Translations under genes and position numbers: made by a program
In this document: piece by piece, positions 4,716-54,275 of the stretch
Layout: each line of letters starts with the position of its first letter
Position numbering within the stretch: position 1 is the first letter of the stretch
NCBI GenBank assembly: GCA_964402565.1
Contig: CAYOCJ010000002.1
Span: forward strand, 170,982 to 234,981
Length of the DNA stretch: 64,000 nt
Direction: 5' to 3'
Source of the DNA: an uncultured Gammaproteobacteria bacterium
GTDB lineage: Bacteria > Patescibacteriota > Patescibacteriia > UBA1558 > 2-01-FULL-52-15
The notes under the pieces: generated by a model
What the model was told of the DNA's origin: nothing
The model's input: only the letters and a program-made list of their open reading frames with translations
Database searches by the model: none

Positions 4716-5960
4716 TTATTTTAACACAGATAGTAATACTTTAAGTGCTGTTTTTTCAGTATCGATACCGGGGTGAACTGCTCGCAGCTCACGCAGCACA
4801 GTATCGATTTTGCCGTCTATGCGAGTCCACGCCGCCGGATCTTTTGGTTTCAATCGCGCTTCAGAAGTATCCCATTCGTATTCTAAATCACTGATGCGAG
4901 CTGTCGCTCCGGATTGGTTTCCTAGATTGAGGAGATCGAGAGTATCCTGTGTAATTGTTGTAAATGAGGAAAGATCACCCAGTGGCGACGATAGCGCAGG
5001 AGTTGAAGTGGCTGTAGCAGCAACAGGCTGTGCAGTCGTTTCATCGCCTTGTAAGTCCGACTGGCGCATATGGTATCCGATAAGCCCCGCGAGCACCAGT
5101 ACCGTAACCACGATCGCGGTTTGCAATAAGCCGCTTCTGCTTTGATCTGCAACGATTTCTTCAGCAACCTCTTCCTTTGTTTCTTTTTCAATACGATCTT
5201 TCTTTGATAGAGAGAGGTAGGCAACTATTCCCAGAATACCCCCGACGAAAATAAAGCTCGTGATAGTTGCGCCAAGACCTAATCCGCCATATTTCGGCGG
5301 CTGAGAAAGGTAATCTCCTATCGATGCCCCGAGCGGTCTGGTCAAAATATAGATCATCCAGAAAGAGAGGACATGGTTCATTTTCAGCTTCCAGCCGATC
5401 GCGAAAGCGGCGATGAGACCGGCGATGATGAAGCCAGTCGTTGCGTAGCCAAGACCAAGCCCTTCAGCCATAAGGTCCCCTGCAGCAGTACCGAGCGCAA
5501 AAGTAAACAGAATGGTGAGCCAGTAAAATGCTTCGCGCCTTGATGTAACAATCGAGTGTATCGAGAGTGTTTTTTCAAAGTAGTACCAAATAAGGAACGT
5601 TGCTGCCAAAAGAATACTGAAAACAATGGTGCTCGTTTCAAGCGGCACGCCGATCTTGTCGGTCAGGTTATCGGTGACCAGCGTTCCGAAGACGCTGATG
5701 AACATGACAGAAAGCCAATACGTGACTGGAATATACCTTTTTGCCTTAAACTGAAACAACAAAGCTAATGCGAGCGCTACCCCGGTAACAATGGATGTAC
5801 CGGTAAGTCCGAAATTTAGATTGACATTTAAGTAATCGGCTGCCGTTTCCCCGACGGTCGTGCACATAACCTTGATGAACCAGAACCAGAGGGTGATCTC
5901 TGGGACTTTGTTGAGCATGTGGCGTAACTTTGTATCGGAAGATTGAACTGGGGAGGACAT
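4716..5960 (-). CDS. polytopic membrane protein, COG4705-like (repeated TxGExxxD motifs)
   Basis: WFWFIKVMCTTVGETAADYL plus later GTAAGDL and GASIGDYL repeats, as in the uncharacterised membrane-anchored protein family. C-terminal soluble domain. The exact start is ambiguous among 5960, 5972 and 5996. Confidence 0.5.
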   Translation of the reverse strand: MSSPVQSSDTKLRHMLNKVPEITLWFWFIKVMCTTVGETAADYLNVNLNFGLTGTSIVTGVALALALLFQFKAKRYIPVTYWLSVMFISVFGTLVTDNLTDKIGVPLETSTIVFSILLAATFLIWYYFEKTLSIHSIVTSRREAFYWLTILFTFALGTAAGDLMAEGLGLGYATTGFIIAGLIAAFAIGWKLKMNHVLSFWMIYILTRPLGASIGDYLSQPPKYGGLGLGATITSFIFVGGILGIVAYLSLSKKDRIEKETKEEVAEEIVADQSRSGLLQTAIVVTVLVLAGLIGYHMRQSDLQGDETTAQPVAATATSTPALSSPLGDLSSFTTITQDTLDLLNLGNQSGATARISDLEYEWDTSEARLKPKDPAAWTRIDGKIDTVLRELRAVHPGIDTEKTALKVLLSVLK

Positions 5961-6030
5961 ATAATCTAGCATAGAACAAAAAAATGATTTGCACAAAGAA
6001 TCATTTTTTCAGTCATCGGCCGAATTATTC

Positions 6031-6049
6031 TGGCGGAGACGGGAGGATT
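6031..6049 (-). repeat. 19-bp direct repeat of the 3' end of tRNA-Ser (att-like remnant)
   Basis: tggcggagacgggaggatt is identical to 10099-10117, the T-arm through CCA of the tRNA-Ser gene, and has the same orientation. Confidence 0.7.
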
Positions 6050-6176
6050 TTCGCCTCGCGGCGTACTCGCCGCTTCGTTGCCAGGGGCAGCGCCTAAAGC
6101 TTCATATCCTTCGCTTCAGCCGGCGCTCTCCGCCCAGGGCGGATCGCTGCTGCCCGTTCGAATCCTTTATCTGATT

Positions 6177-6437
6177 ATTGCTTTCCGTACTCATCTTCGA
6201 TGAGTCCAGAAAACAATGGCGGTCCTTTTTGGACGAAGTTCGAACGTTTTTTAATGAAAATCCCGATGCTGAATTCTGATGCGCGCCGCCTGTGGCGGCG
6301 CGGGGTCAAATTTGCCCATCCAAAACTCACTCTAGCAAAAAGAGATACACAAGGCTAGCGCCCAGCCGTCAGGCCTGACGGCTGGGCGGGAAGGAAAAAA
6401 TGCGCGGCGACAGGGGTTCAAGGGGATGTCGCCGCGC
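6177..6437. repeat. left arm of a 261-bp inverted repeat (IR-L) with three GC-rich hairpins
   Basis: By-eye alignment shows 6177-6437 is the exact reverse complement of 9839-10099. It contains the palindromes cgcgccgcc-tgt-ggcggcgcg, gcccagccgtcagg|cctgacggctgggc and gcgcggcgaca-loop-tgtcgccgcgc. Confidence 0.85.
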
Positions 6438-6471
6438 GTCCAGTACAAGATGATAAAGGTTTCACTATCTG

Positions 6472-7482
6472 TCAACGGTCTGGATAGGGTGCATTCTTTT
6501 GACTTTTCGCTTTCTCAGCAATCCCTGAAAAGAGATGACTGATTTTTGCTGCAGTCAGGATAAAAATGAGTAGATTAATAGCTATGAGTGCTACGCTAAT
6601 TATAGCAAGTGCATCCACAGCTACGGATCTCGATATAATGAGTAGATAATGAACGAGGGGTGCGGTAGGGTCTTCGCGCAGTTCTTCAGAAAATAGACGA
6701 AGTACAAAATTGTATGGGCCATAGTGTATAGCTGCAAGAATGGCGGCTCCAAGTGCTACCCAGAATAAACTTTGCAATGAGATAATTGCTTGGAGACGTG
6801 TATTTTTTGTCGATTTCGGGACATTGACGACTTGTAATTTGAGCTGTGCGATCGTTAGATCAGCGACCATGCCTATGCGTTGCCGTAGACCATGGATAAG
6901 GCCGTATTTTTTTTCTTTTATAACCTGCGATAGGCCTTTAATGATAGTGTATCGATAGCCTTTACCATAGTACTGTGCATAAAAATTAAGACCTGCTTCA
7001 ATACGGAAACCACGTTTGTAATACGGCGGGAGCATCTGCCAAAGTTTTTTAGTAATGGCGCGCTCACCACCAAGGAGTGGCACAAATACCATGATATTGT
7101 GTAAGGCATAGATTTTTCTATTACGCATTGCTATGAACATATCAACGGTACCATCCAGAACCGGCTCTACTAGTGTAGTTACCATTGTGTGTGTGAGCCC
7201 AGATATATCAGCATCAATAAAAAGTATGATATCAGTTCGTGCGAGGCTGACGGCTATGTCCATAGCATGACCCTTGCCTTGATTTGTAGAGAGTCTGATA
7301 TATCGCACGGAATATTTTTGTGTAATTTCCTCAGTTCTATCAGTCGATCCGTCATCAACAACAATAACCTCATAAAAACCTGGGTAGGTCGTCAGCACAC
7401 TAAGAACAGCGCCTATGCGTTGCGCCTCATTGTATGCAGGAACAATGGCGGTTACTTTTTTTCCAGTTTCTTCTCCAACCAT
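6472..7482 (-). CDS. family-2 glycosyltransferase (polyprenyl-phosphate sugar transferase, DPM1/GtrB-like) with a C-terminal TM tail
   Basis: GT-A fold motifs are AIVPAYNEA, VIVVDDGSTD and the DAD triad in FIDADISG. Two to three C-terminal TM helices, as in GtrB/ArnC. Confidence 0.8.
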   Translation of the reverse strand: MVGEETGKKVTAIVPAYNEAQRIGAVLSVLTTYPGFYEVIVVDDGSTDRTEEITQKYSVRYIRLSTNQGKGHAMDIAVSLARTDIILFIDADISGLTHTMVTTLVEPVLDGTVDMFIAMRNRKIYALHNIMVFVPLLGGERAITKKLWQMLPPYYKRGFRIEAGLNFYAQYYGKGYRYTIIKGLSQVIKEKKYGLIHGLRQRIGMVADLTIAQLKLQVVNVPKSTKNTRLQAIISLQSLFWVALGAAILAAIHYGPYNFVLRLFSEELREDPTAPLVHYLLIISRSVAVDALAIISVALIAINLLIFILTAAKISHLFSGIAEKAKSQKNAPYPDR

Positions 7483-8057
7483 AGGGTGACGGATTTAAAT
7501 AAAATAACAATAGCTACAACGACTACTAAGGTATACTCGGTCTTGTGCAGGACAGGAAACAAGTTTTTTGTACTACTCCCTGCGAGCCAGCCGATGGTAA
7601 GCATGACATGCAGCCATATCATCGTGCCTAGTGTGTCAAAAATAACGAAGGTCCAGAAGCCTATTTTCCTGACGGAAAGGTATAGAATGGTCAGAATTCT
7701 GGTACCGTACAGAAATTTGATAAACAATAAGACCAAAAATGGTTTGTGGCCTGTTATCGTCTCAAACCGCTTCAGAAGCGCTTGGTATTTAATTTGTTTT
7801 TCATCCCACGAATGTATGCGCTTAAATAACGTCTGGCCGAATAAAAACCATAGGCTGTCTGAAATCACCGTGCCTGCAAGCGCGAGCCAGAATACTGCGG
7901 AGATGGACCAGATCCCTTGACCTGCGAGAAAAGCGGCTGTGATAATTACAGTCTCACCGAAAAAGAAGGCCCCAATGAAAATAGCCGGCAGCTGGTATGT
8001 GAGTAGCAGTGATGTAATGAGGGGATGTATAGATTTATATATTTGATGATTTAGAAA
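7452..8057 (-). CDS. DedA/VTT-family membrane protein (no canonical start codon; frame continues from the PAP2 gene across a TGA)
   Basis: Conserved DedA core FGETVIITAAFLAGQG plus downstream TM helices. The ORF track calls only 7452..7868 from a GTG. The in-frame region back to the TGA at 8058-8060 is open and encodes the DedA N-terminal helix. Confidence 0.55.
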   Translation of the reverse strand, partial: FLNHQIYKSIHPLITSLLLTYQLPAIFIGAFFFGETVIITAAFLAGQGIWSISAVFWLALAGTVISDSLWFLFGQTLFKRIHSWDEKQIKYQALLKRFETITGHKPFLVLLFIKFLYGTRILTILYLSVRKIGFWTFVIFDTLGTMIWLHVMLTIGWLAGSSTKNLFPVLHKTEYTLVVVVAIVILFKSVTLWLEKKLEKK

Positions 8058-9728
8058 TCATTGCAGCCATAGGATGTACGCTTTACCGTCGGTAAAAAAG
8101 GAATCACCAGATGCATTGATGCCTCGAGTTGGCCGGACTATGTCGAGTTTTGTATGTTCAGAAACCATGTGGGTAGCAATAAGTTCTTGGAAAATTTTTT
8201 CTCGTTCACGGTCAATGTCAGGATCAATCCTGTGTGTCGGTAGGGGAATTTTTGAGCCAATCTCGATGCCATTATCCAAACTGGCTGTCCCAACCCATAA
8301 GGGGCGACCGTCGACAGAATACTGAGTTTTCCAAAAGCGTGCATGGTGTCTCCGTCGTGCGGTTGCATCATCGGTTAGTTGTTTTTCAAACCCCAGGTCA
8401 TTGGCTGTGGTATTGTAAAACGCCGGTGTCATAGGACCAGATGCGTACATGACATTTCTCGCAATTGCCGAAAGCTCGTGTATGACATTACTGAAGTTTA
8501 CGAGATCAGCCAAGTGCCACCCTGCTTGATTAAAGGTGTTGATAATTTGATTTTGTTCACCCAGGATGAGGAAGCTTAAGGGTTCCATGTTTTCTCCAAG
8601 CAGATTTTCACTGTATCTTGGTTCATGTTCAATAAAATCTTGTAGAGTGATAGCTCGAGTCGCAATGTTAGGTGTTATGATTGTTGTGCCATGGGCAGTA
8701 GTATATATACTGCCTAGCGGCACGAAGGTAAGTAATAAAGTTATTACCTTGGATGCTAGAGAAATTTTTTTTCGCGATGTGCTCACGGGCACCTGGAAGT
8801 TAATCTCATATCCAGCAATGGCGATCGTAAGGATTAGCAAACCGAGGTACCAGCCAGCAATAACGTCGCTGGGATAATGAACCCCAAGGTAGATACGACT
8901 GATACCGATGGCTGTGACAAGAAGAAAAAAAGCAGCAATGGTCAGTGCTTTATACCAAACACTACGAACCCGCTTGATAATGAGGTAACTGATAAAACCA
9001 TAGAGACAAATTGCTATGACCGCGTGTCCACTAGGAAAGCTGAATGACGGTGGAAGTGTAATAAGATTTAGGCCAGCGGGTCGGGGACGGTGACCGATCC
9101 ACTTTGTCAACCAGTAGGCACTATATCCTGACCCGACTGATAGTATAAAATAACGAATTACGCTATAGTCTTTATCCATAAGCAAATAAACAAGAGTAAT
9201 TGCAGAAACGAGGAGTACGGTACTGGTATTTGCAAAAGTGGTGATATAGATGAACAAGGACGCATAGCGGGGCGAGATAAAGGCTTGTATGAGGTGAATC
9301 GTTCTTGCATCGGCGAGGTACAAAGGATCCTTGAGTAGAATATCAAAAACTATAATAGTAAATTGAATAAGAAAAAACCCAGCGATAAAAGCACAAATTG
9401 TTGTATACAGTCCTGATGGAAAATTTTTGTCGAGTCTTTTTTTCAAAAAAAAGTACGTACGTGGCCATCGTGATTGAGTTGCTGCTAGGCTTTTTTGCCA
9501 AACACGAGTATGAGCGATACTATGTCCTAGGCTTGAGAGTATTTGGAGAAGTGTTTCTCTCTTTCTGAAAATCCAGACTGAAAATAATCCAATGCATGTA
9601 GACAGGGCGGTTGCGAGAATGAGGACGGCAGCAAGCCCGAGGCCCCAATAACTAAAGTATACAAACAGCTCAAATGATGCATAGATAAATCCAAGAACGG
9701 TCGCAGTGATGAAAATTTTTTTGGCCAT
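8058..9728 (-). CDS. PAP2 lipid phosphatase (BcrC/PgpB-like) with a C-terminal LssY_C-like domain
   Basis: PAP2 motifs are KX6RP (GHRPRPAG), PSGH (FPSGHA) and SRX5HX3D (ISRIYLGVHYPSDV) within 10+ TM helices. The ~230-aa C-terminal soluble extension resembles the LssY C-terminal domain. Confidence 0.8.
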   Translation of the reverse strand: MAKKIFITATVLGFIYASFELFVYFSYWGLGLAAVLILATALSTCIGLFSVWIFRKRETLLQILSSLGHSIAHTRVWQKSLAATQSRWPRTYFFLKKRLDKNFPSGLYTTICAFIAGFFLIQFTIIVFDILLKDPLYLADARTIHLIQAFISPRYASLFIYITTFANTSTVLLVSAITLVYLLMDKDYSVIRYFILSVGSGYSAYWLTKWIGHRPRPAGLNLITLPPSFSFPSGHAVIAICLYGFISYLIIKRVRSVWYKALTIAAFFLLVTAIGISRIYLGVHYPSDVIAGWYLGLLILTIAIAGYEINFQVPVSTSRKKISLASKVITLLLTFVPLGSIYTTAHGTTIITPNIATRAITLQDFIEHEPRYSENLLGENMEPLSFLILGEQNQIINTFNQAGWHLADLVNFSNVIHELSAIARNVMYASGPMTPAFYNTTANDLGFEKQLTDDATARRRHHARFWKTQYSVDGRPLWVGTASLDNGIEIGSKIPLPTHRIDPDIDREREKIFQELIATHMVSEHTKLDIVRPTRGINASGDSFFTDGKAYILWLQ

Positions 9729-9838
9729 AGTGCTATTCTAGCAAAGAAAAGGAGTTATAAATAGCATAGTGTTCATGCAATCGTTGTTAGAATGTCCTAC
9801 ACCAATACCCGTTTCCATAGTATTTTAGAATGCTCAAG

Positions 9839-10099
9839 GCGCGGCGACATCCCCTTGAACCCCTGTCGCCGCGCATTTTTTCCTTCCCGCCCAGCCGTCA
9901 GGCCTGACGGCTGGGCGCTAGCCTTGTGTATCTCTTTTTGCTAGAGTGAGTTTTGGATGGGCAAATTTGACCCCGCGCCGCCACAGGCGGCGCGCATCAG
10001 AATTCAGCATCGGGATTTTCATTAAAAAACGTTCGAACTTCGTCCAAAAAGGACCGCCATTGTTTTCTGGACTCATCGAAGATGAGTACGGAAAGCAAT
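9839..10099. repeat. right arm of the 261-bp inverted repeat (IR-R), abutting the tRNA-Ser 3' end
   Basis: Reverse complement of 6177-6437. Its last base is shared with the first encoded base of the tRNA CCA end. Confidence 0.85.
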
Positions 10100-10189
10100 G
10101 GCGGAGACGGGAGGATTCGAACCTCCGAGACCCTTTGGGGGTCTAACGCTTTTCGAGAGCGCCCCGTTCAACCACTCTGGCACGTCTCC
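10099..10189 (-). tRNA. tRNA-Ser (anticodon CGA), CCA encoded
   Basis: Cloverleaf with acceptor GGAGACG/CGTCTCC. Anticodon stem GCGCU/AGCGU with loop CUCGAAA (U33, CGA, A37). Long variable arm GACCC/GGGUC and T-arm GGAGG-TTCGAAT-CCTCC. Confidence 0.9.
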
Positions 10190-10226
10190 ATCCGCGCTTA
10201 GTATACTTATTTCTTGTATTTTTTCA

Positions 10227-11069
10227 ATGCAGAGGCTCTTTATGGTATACTATGCATATCACACTATGACCATTACGTATCCCAAGGGTGACAGTGACTC
10301 ATCAGCCAACCTGAATCCGCCCGCAAGCGCATCGCATCTGACCGCCGTAGCAATTGCGGTAAGCATCGTCTTCCTCGTTGTCGCTGCAGGCTTGTGGTAT
10401 GGCTTTTCGCAATCAAAAAAAGCTGTCGAATCCGTTCCTGCTGCGGTCATTCCGCTGCCTGCATCGCCTGCAGTGGAAGGAGCGCGCGTGTATGAGGCGA
10501 TCGATGGATTACAGCAATGTCAAAAGAATACTCCTGATCTGAACACGGCTGACGCACAGAAGAAGAGGCAGAATTGCTATTATGCGGTCATGACAATTTT
10601 TGCAACATCATCTATTTGCAATATCATTGCATTGGACGGCAGCAGCTCAGATCTTTGCAAGCAAGCAGAAGCCCGTTTCATCAAGGATTATCCGAACGGC
10701 ATACCGAAAACGGATATACCGCTAGTCGGTGCAAAGACAAATGCAAATTCAAATCCCTCCGTTCCTGGCTCCGGCGGTTCGGCAGGGTTAGGCACGAAAG
10801 GTAGCACTGGATCCACCGGCGGTAGCGGAGGGATAAACTCGAATACGAACACGCAATCTAATACAAATACCGGCTCGCAGAACACGAATACCAACTCAAC
10901 AAGCAATGCGAATACTTCCGGCAATACTAATACTGCGGGCAATTCCAATAGTTCGACCAGCCAAAACAGCAATAACAACAGCAATCAGAACGAAACATCA
11001 AATGATCTGCCCCCATGCCTGAATGACGGTGGTGAGCCGACCTTGTTGCAGCATACCAACTGCCAATAG
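10227..11069 (+). CDS. membrane-anchored protein with an Asn/Thr/Ser/Gly-rich low-complexity C-terminal tail
   Basis: Single TM (LTAVAIAVSIVFLVVAAGLWYGF), then NTNTQSNTNTGSQNTNTNST... Start taken at an ATG downstream of the tRNA (10227 or 10266). The ORF-track start at 10098 overlaps the tRNA and is rejected. Confidence 0.5.
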   Translation: MQRLFMVYYAYHTMTITYPKGDSDSSANLNPPASASHLTAVAIAVSIVFLVVAAGLWYGFSQSKKAVESVPAAVIPLPASPAVEGARVYEAIDGLQQCQKNTPDLNTADAQKKRQNCYYAVMTIFATSSICNIIALDGSSSDLCKQAEARFIKDYPNGIPKTDIPLVGAKTNANSNPSVPGSGGSAGLGTKGSTGSTGGSGGINSNTNTQSNTNTGSQNTNTNSTSNANTSGNTNTAGNSNSSTSQNSNNNSNQNETSNDLPPCLNDGGEPTLLQHTNCQ

Positions 11070-22814: not shown

Positions 22815-23813
22815 CTAATCCTTCTTCATCGCAACCGCGAGAATCTTTTTTCGTATCTCTGCCATGAGCTTCTTGTCTTGCTGCAGGAAGGATTTGGCAT
22901 TTTCACGGCCCGTGCCAAGCTTCGTGCCGCTATAGGTATAGGTATTGCCGCTCTTGGTAATGACTTCGTAGAGTACGCCCTGATCGATCAAGTCTGAAGC
23001 GAGCGAGATGCCTTCATTGTACATGATGTCGAATTCGCAGGTCTTGAACGGAGGAGCGACCTTATTTTTGACGATTTTTACTTTCACACGATTACCGATG
23101 ACTTTTTCACCCTGCTTGATCACTGCTGCACGCCTGACCTCGACACGGACCGATGCATAGAATTTCAATGCATTGCCGCCGGTCGTTGTTTCCGGGTTGC
23201 CGAAGAAGACGCCGATCTTCATTCTGATCTGATTGATGAAAATAACGGTCGTTTTGGTTTTACTGATGATGCCGGCTAACTTGCGCAATGCCTGGCTCAT
23301 GAGCCGCGCCTGCAAACCCATATGGGAGTCGCCCATATCACCTTCAAGTTCGGCTTTCGGGACGAGAGCTGCTACTGAGTCGATGACAATGGCATCAAAT
23401 GCATTTGATCTGACCAAGGTTTCGACTATTTCAAGGGCTTGTTCGCCGGTATCTGGTTGCGCGATGAATAGATCTTTCGTATGAACACCGATCATTTTTG
23501 CATATTCTGGGTCAAGAGCATGCTCAGCATCGATGAACGCTGCAAGACCGCCTTGTTTCTGTACTTCTGCAACAATGTGCTGGGCCAAGGTTGTTTTGCC
23601 TGAGCTTTCCGGTCCGTAGATCTCGATGATGCGGCCGCGAGGTACACCGCCGATGCCCAATGCAATGTCCAATGAAAGGCATCCGGTCGGGATCCCCTCA
23701 AGATTCAGGGCTTTATTATCGCCTAACTTCATGATGGAGCCTTCACCGAAACGCTCCTTAATTTGGTTGATAGCTTCGGTTGCTGCCTGTGTTTTTTTTG
23801 ATTCTTCTGGCAT
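22815..23813 (-). CDS. recA: recombinase RecA
   Basis: Canonical start region [20 protein letters not shown]. Walker [14 protein letters not shown], plus L1/L2 loops. The ORF-track N-terminal extension to 23936 overlaps the upstream gene and is rejected. Start taken at MPEESKK (cat at 23811-23813). Confidence 0.93.
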
Positions 23814-40964: not shown

Positions 40965-41101
40965 GTTCAGCATCAGGAAAAAACTGGCGAGGTCGCTTGC
41001 GGCCTCGCCTTTTTCTTTTCTCTGTTGACGAAAATGATATGGAGGGGTAAGGTCTTTGGTCACGTTCATTCCAACTTGCGCGCTTGCGCATTGAGGTGCA
41101 T

Positions 41102-54225: not shown

Positions 54226-54239
54226 TTGTCCCGCAAAGA

Positions 54240-54275
54240 TACCGCCCCTGCCGAATGGCAGGGGCGGTTTTGAAT
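54240..54275 (+). terminator. intrinsic terminator of rpsT
   Basis: ccgcccctgcc-gaat-ggcaggggcgg followed by tttt. Confidence 0.7.

Follow-up and report, generated by a model that had tools for sequence, protein, structure and literature searches.

The window, by which we mean the whole 64,000-nt stretch of DNA analysed, carries between a DUF347 membrane-protein gene and a tRNA-Ser(CGA) gene a three-gene operon framed by a long inverted repeat (IR) and flanked further out by a short direct repeat (DR) that duplicates the tRNA 3' terminus (Table 1). By Pfam, the three genes encode a PAP2 phosphatase fused to an LssY_C domain, a DedA/VTT-domain membrane protein and a GT2 glycosyltransferase, which bears out the assignment (GT2, DedA-like, PAP2) made in a first-pass annotation. 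The DedA ORF begins directly after the TGA stop codon of the PAP2 gene, in frame with it, and has no canonical start codon before 7868. Weak PDB matches of the GT2 protein are to polyprenyl-phosphate glycosyltransferases (DPMS, 5mlz; GT2 glycosyltransferase sll0501, 5eke), and the products of the operon plausibly act on a polyprenyl-phosphate lipid carrier feeding envelope glycan synthesis. None of the three genes is a recombinase according to Pfam, and tblastn of Xer-type and large serine recombinase queries against the 64 kb gave no match, in agreement with the earlier claim that no integrase is enclosed.

Table 1. Features in and around the tRNA-Ser(CGA) interval (positions in the window; H, E and X as defined in the text).
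Feature	Position	Strand	Basis or composition
DUF347 membrane-protein gene, flanking	4716..5960	-	Pfam PF03988
DR, 3' tail of E	6031..6049	-	minus strand AATCCTCCCGTCTCCGCCA; identical to tRNA positions 58-76
Element E, GC-rich, structured	6050..6166	-	covariance model R1, 89.3 bits
Left IR arm	6177..6437	.	H (6178-6216) + TGGCGG (6217-6222) + segment X (6223-6437)
Terminator-like hairpin H3	6395..6437	-	11-bp GC stem, 14-nt loop, then AUUUUUU; read directly from sequence
Unique interior, three-gene operon	6438..9838	-	foreign composition, 42.5% GC
GT2 glycosyltransferase, hydrophobic C-terminal region, 336 aa	6472..7482	-	Pfam PF00535
DedA/VTT-domain membrane protein	7452..8057	-	Pfam PF09335, translation, ORF list
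PAP2 phosphatase fused to LssY_C domain, 556 aa	8058..9728	-	Pfam PF01569, PF14067
Right IR arm	9839..10099	.	hairpin H (10060-10098) + CCGCCA (10054-10059) + X (215 nt)
tRNA-Ser(CGA) with encoded CCA	10099..10189	-	ARAGORN; Rfam tRNA model 48.7 bits
Sigma-70-like promoter TTGAAA, 16 nt, TATACT	10200..10227	-	consensus scan 10/12; pattern match only

The window has a GC content of 48.3%, so that the description of the genome as AT-rich does not hold, compared with 42.5% for the operon interior. This interior ranks lowest in GC among 303 windows and, by tetranucleotide distance, is the most divergent of 152. The best non-self homologue of the PAP2 protein among 5.8 billion proteins searched is 53% identical, and the next is 43% identical.

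The DR, TGGCGGAGACGGGAGGATT, is present as an exact 19-nt sequence in the same orientation at 6031-6049 and 10099-10117, the second copy being the last 19 nt of tRNA-Ser(CGA); only ~0.007 chance 19-mer repeats are expected per 64 kb, as had been argued qualitatively. It spans exactly A58 in the T-loop to A76 of the CCA end, and the same left boundary is found at the other loci described below. The putative tRNA promoter adjoins the tRNA gene upstream and reads toward the cassette in the assembled orientation.

Comparison of the window with itself, the check suggested in the first-pass annotation, aligned both the DR and the IR exactly. The IR arms, as claimed, are 261 nt each and 100% complementary, with 3401 nt between them, and the last base of the right arm is indeed the terminal A of the encoded CCA of the tRNA. 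The outer 46 nt of each arm (CCGCCA plus hairpin H, the TGGCGG of the left arm being the reverse complement of the CCGCCA of the right) are 87% identical to the single post-tRNA hairpin of a related Saccharibacteria locus (L002) and are, judged by this comparison, native locus sequence. The inner 215 nt (segment X) are present in this genome alone and bear the terminator of the operon, H3, which lies 34 nt past the GT2 stop codon and is missing from the output of the terminator scan because its loop exceeds the limit of that scan. The three strong GC-rich palindromes reported for each arm were recovered at 6282-6302, 6359-6388 and 6402-6437, together with their mirror copies, and represent the densest cluster of such palindromes in the window. 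A Logan contig (L001) corresponds to window positions 6408-9868, covering the whole interior and running exactly 30 nt into either arm, so both inner junctions are also present in an independent assembly. The IR is real.

In the databases, the closest relative is represented by a DUF347 match of 87% identity, and in related loci of Saccharibacteria the region upstream of the DUF347 gene is an insertion hotspot. At L002, tRNA-Ser(GGA) (8752-8839) is followed by a 40-nt hairpin, a GC-rich element (E) and 19 nt that repeat the tRNA's own 3' end (9015-9033), in this order and at the same locus, with cassette and IR both absent; a column-wise comparison of this tRNA-trailer stretch with window positions 6240-6010 gives about 85% identity. 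An unclassified metagenome contig (L021) likewise carries the complete module of hairpin, E and tRNA-derived tail, and at both loci the repeats are separated by ~180 bp that are cargo-free. The DR had been taken to delimit the cassette; this boundary was ruled out, given that hairpin, GC-rich element and tRNA-matched DR all occur at L002 without cassette or IR. The interpretation of the tRNA 3'-end duplication as an integration footprint stands, in that the duplication starts in the T-loop and the same footprint is found at other tRNAs in related genomes.

Element E is ~135 nt long; its core (6075-6166) is built of helix P2, P3 (a hairpin that varies) and the P4 hairpin, and after the core come hairpin P5 and the motif GAGGCGAAA. 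The stretch at 6124-6157, previously read as degenerate tRNA fragments, makes up the P4 stem and the 5' end of E, both of them conserved parts of an element that recurs at six loci. Homologues are present at L002, L007, L020/L048, L021 and L045-47. Counting the window copy, E follows tRNAs of several Patescibacteria (Ser-CGA twice, Ser-GGA, Lys-CTT and Tyr-GTA), and at every E locus examined, five besides the window, the tail of E matches the 3' end of the tRNA directly upstream. The covariance model R1 gives 80-100 bits at the window, L002, L007, L020 and L021, and 83.8 bits at L045-47, which were left out of model building. In P4, five of the seven pairs show compensatory changes on both sides and all cells pair; over the modelled structure as a whole, 96% of cells pair, compared with 27-48% in slid-register controls. 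Compensatory changes among six sequences thus lend moderate support to the helices of E. P3 and P5 keep their places as hairpins across the homologues, with sequences that are unrelated. Rfam yielded no meaningful match for E or the IR (E-value <=10 over 5950-6480, <=5 in L020 and L021), and the tRNA alone reached the gathering score; E is possibly a new tRNA-trailer element.

The E core is 78% identical between the window and L002, against 45% at the four-fold degenerate sites of the adjacent DUF347 gene, so on this evidence E is under selection or was recently transferred. E occurs patchily and out of step with the phylogeny of its hosts. The window copy is 81% identical to that of Moranbacteria, closer than to the Saccharibacteria copy in L002. 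Based on this likeness, and on the tRNA-Tyr site of L043, where the same Thr-Tyr-Thr tRNA cluster lacks E and the flank is rearranged, E appears to be mobile. No integrase is encoded at any of the six E loci, and an autonomous relative, in the form of an integrase-bearing element ending in E, was not found. Because E lies in the same orientation directly behind the tRNA, and at L045 separates two tRNAs of a single cluster, the second being 5 nt away, it probably belongs to tRNA operon transcripts.

We regard the interval as an integrase-less islet at a tRNA hotspot and think it reasonably probable that it is a composite locus, in which a recent foreign operon has been added to a tRNA-trailer module at hairpin H. 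The first layer would be the module itself, consisting of the 40-nt palindromic hairpin H, E and the 19-nt tail (T-loop position 58 to CCA), as also found behind other tRNAs in Saccharibacteria, Moranbacteria and the unclassified contig. The module may represent a small recombinase-less integrative element or a persistent derivative of one, with the DR as its att-type repeat, and the conserved helices suggest that folded RNA or folded single-stranded DNA would be needed for its maintenance. As the second layer, the 3.4-kb PAP2-LssY_C, DedA and GT2 operon would have inserted recently at H, directly past the tRNA CCA. Whereas the anatomy of the interval, its homologies and its foreign composition are direct observations, we infer that the IR arose by inverted duplication during this insertion, which would have copied H together with 6 nt from the end of the tRNA and a hairpin-rich flank of 215 nt that bears the terminator. 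The operon has the most deviant composition and lacks close homologues, and is therefore probably a foreign and recent insertion at the hairpin; signs of recency are the 100% identity of the IR and the intactness of E, although it is now 4 kb from its tRNA. The perfect 261-bp IR would let the operon flip by homologous recombination, with a terminator predicted downstream in either orientation and co-directionality with the tRNA promoter in the assembled orientation only. From the first-pass annotation, enclosed cargo without an integrase, an integration-type footprint and an IR that could mediate inversion are retained in this composite reading; the DR as boundary, the tRNA fragments and the IR as transposon terminus are not.

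Integration of the cassette into tRNA-Ser could instead have made the 19-nt DR, with the integrase lost later, in which case the whole 4.1 kb would be one decayed integrative island, the reading listed first in the first-pass annotation. A repeat running from T-loop to CCA, as for T-loop-type tyrosine integrases, the compositionally foreign cargo and the location of the cassette wholly between tRNA and DR would all agree with this. It is nevertheless unlikely, as L002 and L021 possess the DR, hairpin and E with only the short cargo-free spacing, E beside the DR appears conserved under selection and hence is not decaying island DNA, and the cassette is bracketed by two native hairpin copies and not by the DR. 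The first-pass annotation also raised a foldback or MITE-like element, and the segment 6177-10099 does have terminal inverted repeats (261 bp at 100%), IR boundaries that both fall at hairpin bases, and a foreign interior. For a foldback or long-TIR transposon, or a MITE-like composite, to have inserted whole beside the tRNA is decidedly improbable, however: the outer 46 nt are native and occur singly in L002, no target-site duplication, direct or inverted, was detected at any of the candidate boundaries tried (flanks ...CTGATT / GGCGGA...), searches of the window, of related loci totalling 520 kb and of phage and plasmid collections gave no second copy of X or of the 261-bp unit, and the unit 6177-10099 contains no transposase.

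The IR might alternatively be the working part of a programmed inversion switch, providing phase variation of an envelope-modifying operon. Frequent flip-flop recombination homogenizing the arms would fit a long perfect IR, the cargo is predicted to act on the envelope, the putative tRNA promoter points into the operon in just one of the two orientations, and a downstream terminator would be kept in each. Set against this, no invertase gene was found near the segment by Pfam on ORFs or by recombinase tblastn over the 64 kb; the 110 nt of unique interior before the PAP2 start could hold a promoter of its own, such that orientation may not matter; and just one orientation is on record, while the k=31 Logan graph breaks at the IR and so does not distinguish between the two. 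We consider such a switch improbable. An assembly artefact, whereby a separate small molecule or DNA of another strain was threaded into the chromosome via shared repeat k-mers, has to be weighed because the source is a metagenome-assembled genome (MAG), the interior differs in composition and the Logan assembly breaks exactly at the IR. This is very unlikely: both hairpin copies are hybrid, and their arms differ at three positions, so chromosomal and element hairpins would share no 31-mers across the junction; contig construction requires all four junctions; and both inner ones are confirmed by the Logan contig.

Beyond the composite locus, it is conceivable, if doubtful, that H, E and tail constitute a new recombinase-less mobile element targeting tRNA 3' ends in Patescibacteria, with a conserved three-way-junction RNA or folded single-stranded DNA driving its maintenance or insertion. 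The tail would be re-programmable and target-matching, either guide-like or as a 16-20-nt target duplication, which would account for copies ~80% identical that follow tRNAs for Ser, Tyr and Lys in bacteria of different classes. Next to E, the palindromic hairpin could serve as a docking site that captures cargo such as the envelope operon.

One class of genomic islands integrated at tRNA genes is reportedly made by T-loop-type tyrosine integrases (Williams 2002, Nucleic Acids Res). The present locus resembles such islands in its direct repeat from inside the T-loop to the tRNA 3' end, in foreign cargo that adjoins the tRNA, and in having one element family at different tRNA identities. Mycobacteriophage Ms6 is an example, with attP/attB reported in the T-loop of tRNA-Ala (PMC1762012), and partial tRNA copies accumulate as scars at tRNA-integrated islands, as here (PMC9897764). 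Unlike these islands, the present locus and the other E loci lack an integrase, the unit between the repeats may measure no more than about 180 bp, and the distal-repeat arm is a covarying three-way-junction structure conserved across Patescibacteria classes. Tycheposons and their remnants, known from islands of Prochlorococcus, likewise place cargo modules at tRNA genes in streamlined genomes, occur as integrase-less degenerate remnants, have partial tRNA copies separating successive insertions and, as reported, undergo inversions triggered by homologous recombination between identical copies (bioRxiv 10.1101/2020.12.28.424599). They differ in being defined by integrase and replication genes and in a typical size of 10-20 kb, whereas Pfam identified only PAP2-LssY_C, DedA and GT2 here, with no tycheposon integrase or replication module; nor has an E-like structured element been described for tycheposons.

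Cis-mobilizable elements (CIMEs) and other non-autonomous att-flanked elements are recombinase-free DNA between att-type repeats that can be mobilized in trans. The locus shares the att-type repeats around DNA without a recombinase gene, and trans-mobilization is conceivable (for a review of IMEs, see PMC5704250). In contrast to CIMEs, no cognate autonomous element is known for it, and E is far smaller and behaves like structured RNA or single-stranded DNA. Functional tRNA spacer RNAs are exemplified by the leuZ 3'ETS of Escherichia coli, which acts as an sRNA sponge. E has the same orientation directly behind the tRNA, but differs from such spacers in bearing a tRNA 3'-end copy and in its patchy occurrence off the host phylogeny. 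Phage-borne gtr serotype-conversion cassettes sit by tRNA att sites and have GtrA and GtrC as partners. They too are small lipid-carrier operons for envelope glycans (GT2 plus membrane partners) carried as cargo at a tRNA gene; here, however, the partners are DedA and PAP2-LssY_C, there is no phage or integrase context, and a perfect IR encloses the three genes.

The genomes of Saccharibacteria and other Patescibacteria are very small and contain few recognizable mobile elements, and their gene gain is poorly understood. The locus offers a concrete route, namely a tRNA-linked hotspot at which a foreign envelope operon would have been captured without a resident recombinase gene, beside a small structured element whose tail duplicates the 3' end of the preceding tRNA, whatever its identity, and which crosses class boundaries. 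If E is autonomous in any sense, or a functional RNA, it would represent a new family in a phylum with almost none known. The perfect IR around surface-modifying genes offers a testable means of envelope variation in an episymbiont. Annotators of these genomes should not assume by default that a tRNA 3' fragment marks the limit of the nearest gene cluster.

Two diverged Moranbacteria (L020 and L045) both keep E at one and the same tRNA-Tyr site, a persistence as compatible with a host-beneficial RNA as with a mobile element. A further point against reading the module as an integrative element is that ordinary integrase arm sites would not be expected to have covarying helices. There is precedent for the cassette's position, in that PAP2-LssY_C genes also lie directly 3' of tRNAs elsewhere; at one such locus (L018) the PAP2-LssY_C gene is followed by 15 nt that repeat the 3' end of tRNA-His.

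The repeat structure at tRNA-Ser(CGA) is real, and its interpretation must be divided in two, with a gene-bearing islet on the one hand and a tRNA-trailer element on the other. Repeat analysis of the window gave inverted repeat (IR) arms of 261 nt with 100% complementarity and a 3401-nt spacer, together with a 19-nt direct repeat (DR) of the tRNA 3' end, both as described in the first-pass annotation; its view that a chance 19-mer was very unlikely agrees with an expectation of ~0.007 such repeats in 64 kb. Neither repeat has further copies elsewhere in the window. The three strong GC-rich palindromes that had been noted in each arm form the densest hairpin cluster of that kind in the window, although the genome is not AT-rich as had been supposed (window GC 48.3%). 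Logan contig L001 (SRR12313480) corresponds exactly to window 6408-9868, comprising the cassette interior and 30 nt of each arm, and these ends are the outcome expected of a true inverted repeat in a k=31 assembly graph. Because L001 carries only 30 nt per arm, the orientation of the interior is left unfixed by the Logan assembly. The ordinary terminator style of this genome is a single GC-rich hairpin followed by a T-run (40986-41009 and 54239-54270), against which the triple-hairpin cluster of the IR stands out.

Features of the tRNA-Ser(CGA) locus, and copies of the GC-rich structured element E (window positions unless a contig is named)
Feature	Position	Strand	Remarks
DUF347 membrane-protein gene			left flank of cassette
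DR, distal copy (tail)	6031-6049		tRNA 3' end, 19 nt
E core	6075-6166
IR, left arm	6177-6437
Cassette interior	6438-9838		three-gene operon
GT2 glycosyltransferase	6472-7482	minus
DedA/VTT protein	7452-8057	minus
PAP2 fused to LssY_C	8058-9728	minus
IR, right arm	9839-10099
DR, copy in tRNA	10099-10117		tRNA 3' end, 19 nt
tRNA-Ser(CGA)	10099-10189	minus	one such tRNA in window
Low-complexity ORF, RibD_C gene, PilB			right flank
E core in L002	8890-8989		related Saccharibacterium
E in L021			behind tRNA-Ser(CGA) and an AT-rich 41-nt palindrome; then a 16-nt repeat of that tRNA's 3' end
E in L020	45-133 (core)		ahead of tRNA-Thr; contig ends upstream of E
E-like element in L007			behind tRNA-Lys(CTT); then a 20-nt repeat of that tRNA's 3' end
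E in L045-47			between tRNA-Tyr(GTA) and tRNA-Thr(GGT); tail AATCCCTCCCTGCCCACAT is the tRNA-Tyr 3' end

The source organism is a Saccharibacterium, and the closest genome among those found (L002) has a DUF347 protein of 84-87% identity; no relative above 87% identity in the flanking protein was found for an empty-site test. Behind tRNA-Ser(GGA) of L002 come a palindromic hairpin of 40 nt, ~130 nt of GC-rich sequence, and a 19-nt repeat of the 3' end of that same tRNA (AATCCCTCACTCTCCGCCA, 9015-9033). The stretch aligns to window 6240-6010 with ~85% column identity, and the homology starts with the six terminal bases of the tRNA, CCGCCA. Both the cassette and the IR are missing at the L002 locus. 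The DR therefore belongs to a small module of hairpin (H), structured element (E), and tail, and is not the boundary of the cassette for which it was first taken.

Read along the minus strand, the order is tRNA (ending in CCGCCA), H in orientation A, TGGCGG, X (the inner 215 nt of the arm), the operon, X' (the inverted copy of X), CCGCCA, H in orientation B, a 10-nt linker, E, and the tail. Each arm has at its outer end 46 nt that are native to the locus (CCGCCA and H) and that occur once in L002, where the hairpin loop has the orientation of copy B, the one beside E. Nothing homologous to X was found across 520 kb of related loci, and X is apparently unique to this genome. The hairpin lying innermost in X', with AUUUUUU behind it, is 34 nt past the GT2 stop codon and resembles a terminator for the operon.

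No target-site duplication, direct or inverted, was detected at several candidate element boundaries, and no transposase or invertase is present; we therefore place the insertion at the palindromic hairpin H, with or before the 261-bp inverted duplication. A crossover at the hairpin centre between the chromosomal palindrome and an element-borne one would fit, and the hairpin arms do not discriminate here, as comparison with L002 gave 6 differences against 6. Fold-back priming at the palindrome would account for an IR with adjacent arms, not for one with a 3.4-kb spacer. A transposon reading of the IR-bounded unit, including the foldback or MITE-like element proposed earlier, fails because there is neither a target-site duplication nor any further copy in the window, in 520 kb of related loci, or in the phage and plasmid collections. 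In agreement with the integrase-free gene content noted at first, tblastn across the 64 kb gave no integrase. Among known kinds, the closest are the tRNA islands of T-loop-type integrases, integrase-less remnants such as those around tycheposons (bioRxiv 10.1101/2020.12.28.424599), and CIME-like non-autonomous elements, from each of which the present locus departs on the recombinase criterion. As a foreign islet without an integrase, at a tRNA hotspot, the cassette is a variant of an already known type.

The cassette interior has the lowest GC content of all 3.4-kb windows (42.5%; mean 48.4%) and the largest tetranucleotide distance in the window. The best homologue of its PAP2-LssY_C protein is 53% identical, with none higher, and the ordinary Saccharibacteria orthologues share 41-43% identity with it; the latter lie in another setting, with a conserved gene order of rpsO, Xer-like recombinase, tRNA-Arg, tRNA-His, and PAP2-LssY_C. 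The cassette is missing from every related DUF347 locus compared. Composition, the lack of a close PAP2 homologue, and this absence together argue for a foreign insertion, and one that is probably recent, given the perfect IR and an E that is intact though 4 kb from its tRNA.

In L018 (7880-9761), and also in L019 and L016, PAP2-LssY_C is encoded directly behind tRNA-Arg and tRNA-His, beside a gene for a Xer-like recombinase. A 15-nt copy of the tRNA-His 3' end (TCCCAGTAGCCACCC) comes after it in L018, so that there too it looks like tRNA-linked cargo. The 53% homologue (L029 415-2425) is directly 3' of tRNA-Trp, on a contig that ends in a GC-rich palindrome (TCTCACCCGTCAGTCGCGACTGACGGGTGAGA) similar to IR hairpin H2 (CGCCCAGCCGTCAGGCCTGACGGCTGGGCG).

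Matches of the cassette proteins in NCBIfam and PDB are weak, and are to undecaprenyl-diphosphatases, the undecaprenyl-phosphate transporter UptA, and polyprenyl-phosphate glycosyltransferases; from these, a role of the operon in lipid-carrier-linked envelope glycan synthesis is plausible. The DedA/VTT ORF (7452-8057, minus strand) has no ATG, GTG, or TTG ahead of 7868, and the conserved N-terminal 60 residues are encoded upstream of that codon. It directly follows, in frame, the TGA stop of PAP2-LssY_C (8058-8060). This may reflect reading through the UGA into a fusion of ~758 aa, initiation at a non-canonical codon (ATA or ATT), or a fusion that has decayed. The GT2 gene starts inside the end of DedA, with an overlap of 31 nt. 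A 52-aa ORF within the IR has no record in the databases searched.

Homologous recombination can act on a perfect IR of 261 bp, so that the operon is probably able to invert. Symmetry would leave it with X upstream and a terminator downstream in both orientations, and it is co-directional with the promoter-like site of the tRNA (10200-10227) only in the assembled orientation. Reading from that site, no X hairpin has a U-tract behind it.

The tRNA-trailer element appears to be undescribed, and is the more interesting half of the finding and directly testable. A metagenome scan with a 21-mer from E recovered two contigs (L020 and L021), and a covariance model (R1) was built from five copies (window, L002, L007, L020, and L021), on which it scores 80-100 bits. 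R1 also detected a copy unseen in its building, at 83.8 bits, in L045-47, contigs called Moranbacteria-type from how their L33 homologues are named. A run of R1 across the window and 374 kb of loci gave no added copy; a weak match at window 23039-23149 (E-value = 0.084) was judged to be chance. E is carried by one of the 14 Saccharibacteria loci around DUF347, and seven more DUF347 loci (L022-L028) have neither a tRNA nor E. The same Thr-Tyr-Thr tRNA cluster is found in L043 without E. The window E core has 81% identity with the copy in L020, from Moranbacteria, and only 78% with that of L002, which is at odds with host relatedness. Rfam has no family for E, H, or X at gathering or permissive thresholds; patterns of E gave no match in viral contigs, or spurious ones (≤18.5 bits) without a nearby tRNA, and a BLAST query of E with the left IR arm had no match among phages or plasmids.

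Independent folds agree on one architecture in each copy of E, with P2 (GGGCAGC and GCUGCCC) as the closing helix and three hairpins (P3, P4, and P5), the first and last of them variable. Across six sequences, 96% of all cells pair, compared with 27-48% in a control in which the 3' partners were slid by 1-3 columns, and P4 has changes on both sides in five of its seven pairs. The arms of P5 are GCGGCG/CGCCGC in the window, GCGGCC/GGCCGC in L002, CCGACU/AGUCGG in L020, and GCCAUCGC/GCGAUGGC in L021. The 5' end of E and the start of the tail are complementary and pair as GGAUU/AAUCC behind Ser and Tyr tRNAs and as GGGAC/GUCCC behind tRNA-Lys. Identity of the window with L002 is 78% over the E core and only 45% at four-fold degenerate sites of the neighbouring gene, which points either to purifying selection on E or to its recent transfer. 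An 8-bp pairing of the window tail with GGCGGAGA inside E is a coincidence, as L020 keeps the P3 hairpin with a non-complementary tail. Derivation of E from a piece of tmRNA, 5S rRNA, or group II intron domain V was rejected, as the resemblance is in each case a short motif that has no covariance-model support, and the architecture is a poor fit.

The left edge of the tRNA repeat falls at T-loop position 57 or 58 in every case, and the right edge at the discriminator base or CCA. Williams, in 2002, is said to have described such a pattern as left by tyrosine integrases with a T-loop crossover, of which Ms6 is reportedly an example. Partial tRNA copies are a recognised by-product of such integration (PMC9897764). 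Short downstream copies of tRNA 3' ends also occur without E, for tRNA-Gln (L003), tRNA-Ser(CGA) (L007), and tRNA-His (L018). Large serine recombinase genes (L025 324-1508; L027 2693-4021) lie just upstream of DUF347 orthologues (L025-27), so other integrating elements also make use of this intergenic region, and the locus is an integration hotspot. Based on the T-loop-type edges, the other tRNA 3'-end copies, and the hotspot, we read H, E, and tail as a miniature recombinase-less element or its long-lived derivative. The data also allow E to be a functional RNA of tRNA operons, since its helices covary and it persists at the tRNA-Tyr site in two diverged Moranbacteria.

Other small structures were observed at related tRNA genes. 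In L007 (7652-7823), tRNA-Ser(CGA) and an 18-nt repeat of its 3' end enclose another GC-rich stretch, which has four hairpins and is not detected by R1; this tRNA gene has no encoded CCA, which is present after the distal copy. The tRNA-Tyr/tRNA-Thr spacer of L043 (2313-2393) has, instead of E, a 22-nt fragment of the tRNA-Thr 5' end (GTCGTTGTAGCTCAGTTGGTAG) and two small hairpins, and is a different type of small tRNA-linked insertion. In L003 (9160-9310), the tRNA-Gln leader GACACACACTC is complementary to the trailer GAGTGTGTGT, and in a pseudo-fragment 34 nt downstream, a portion of the anticodon loop is fused to the segment that runs from T-loop to 3' end. An inverted pseudo-tRNA-Ser (anticodon ACT) opposes tRNA-Ser(GCT) upstream of the DUF347 gene in L004 (9236-9990), which also has a duplicated 5'-end fragment and, 375 nt downstream, a degenerate 3'-end copy around a small ORF.
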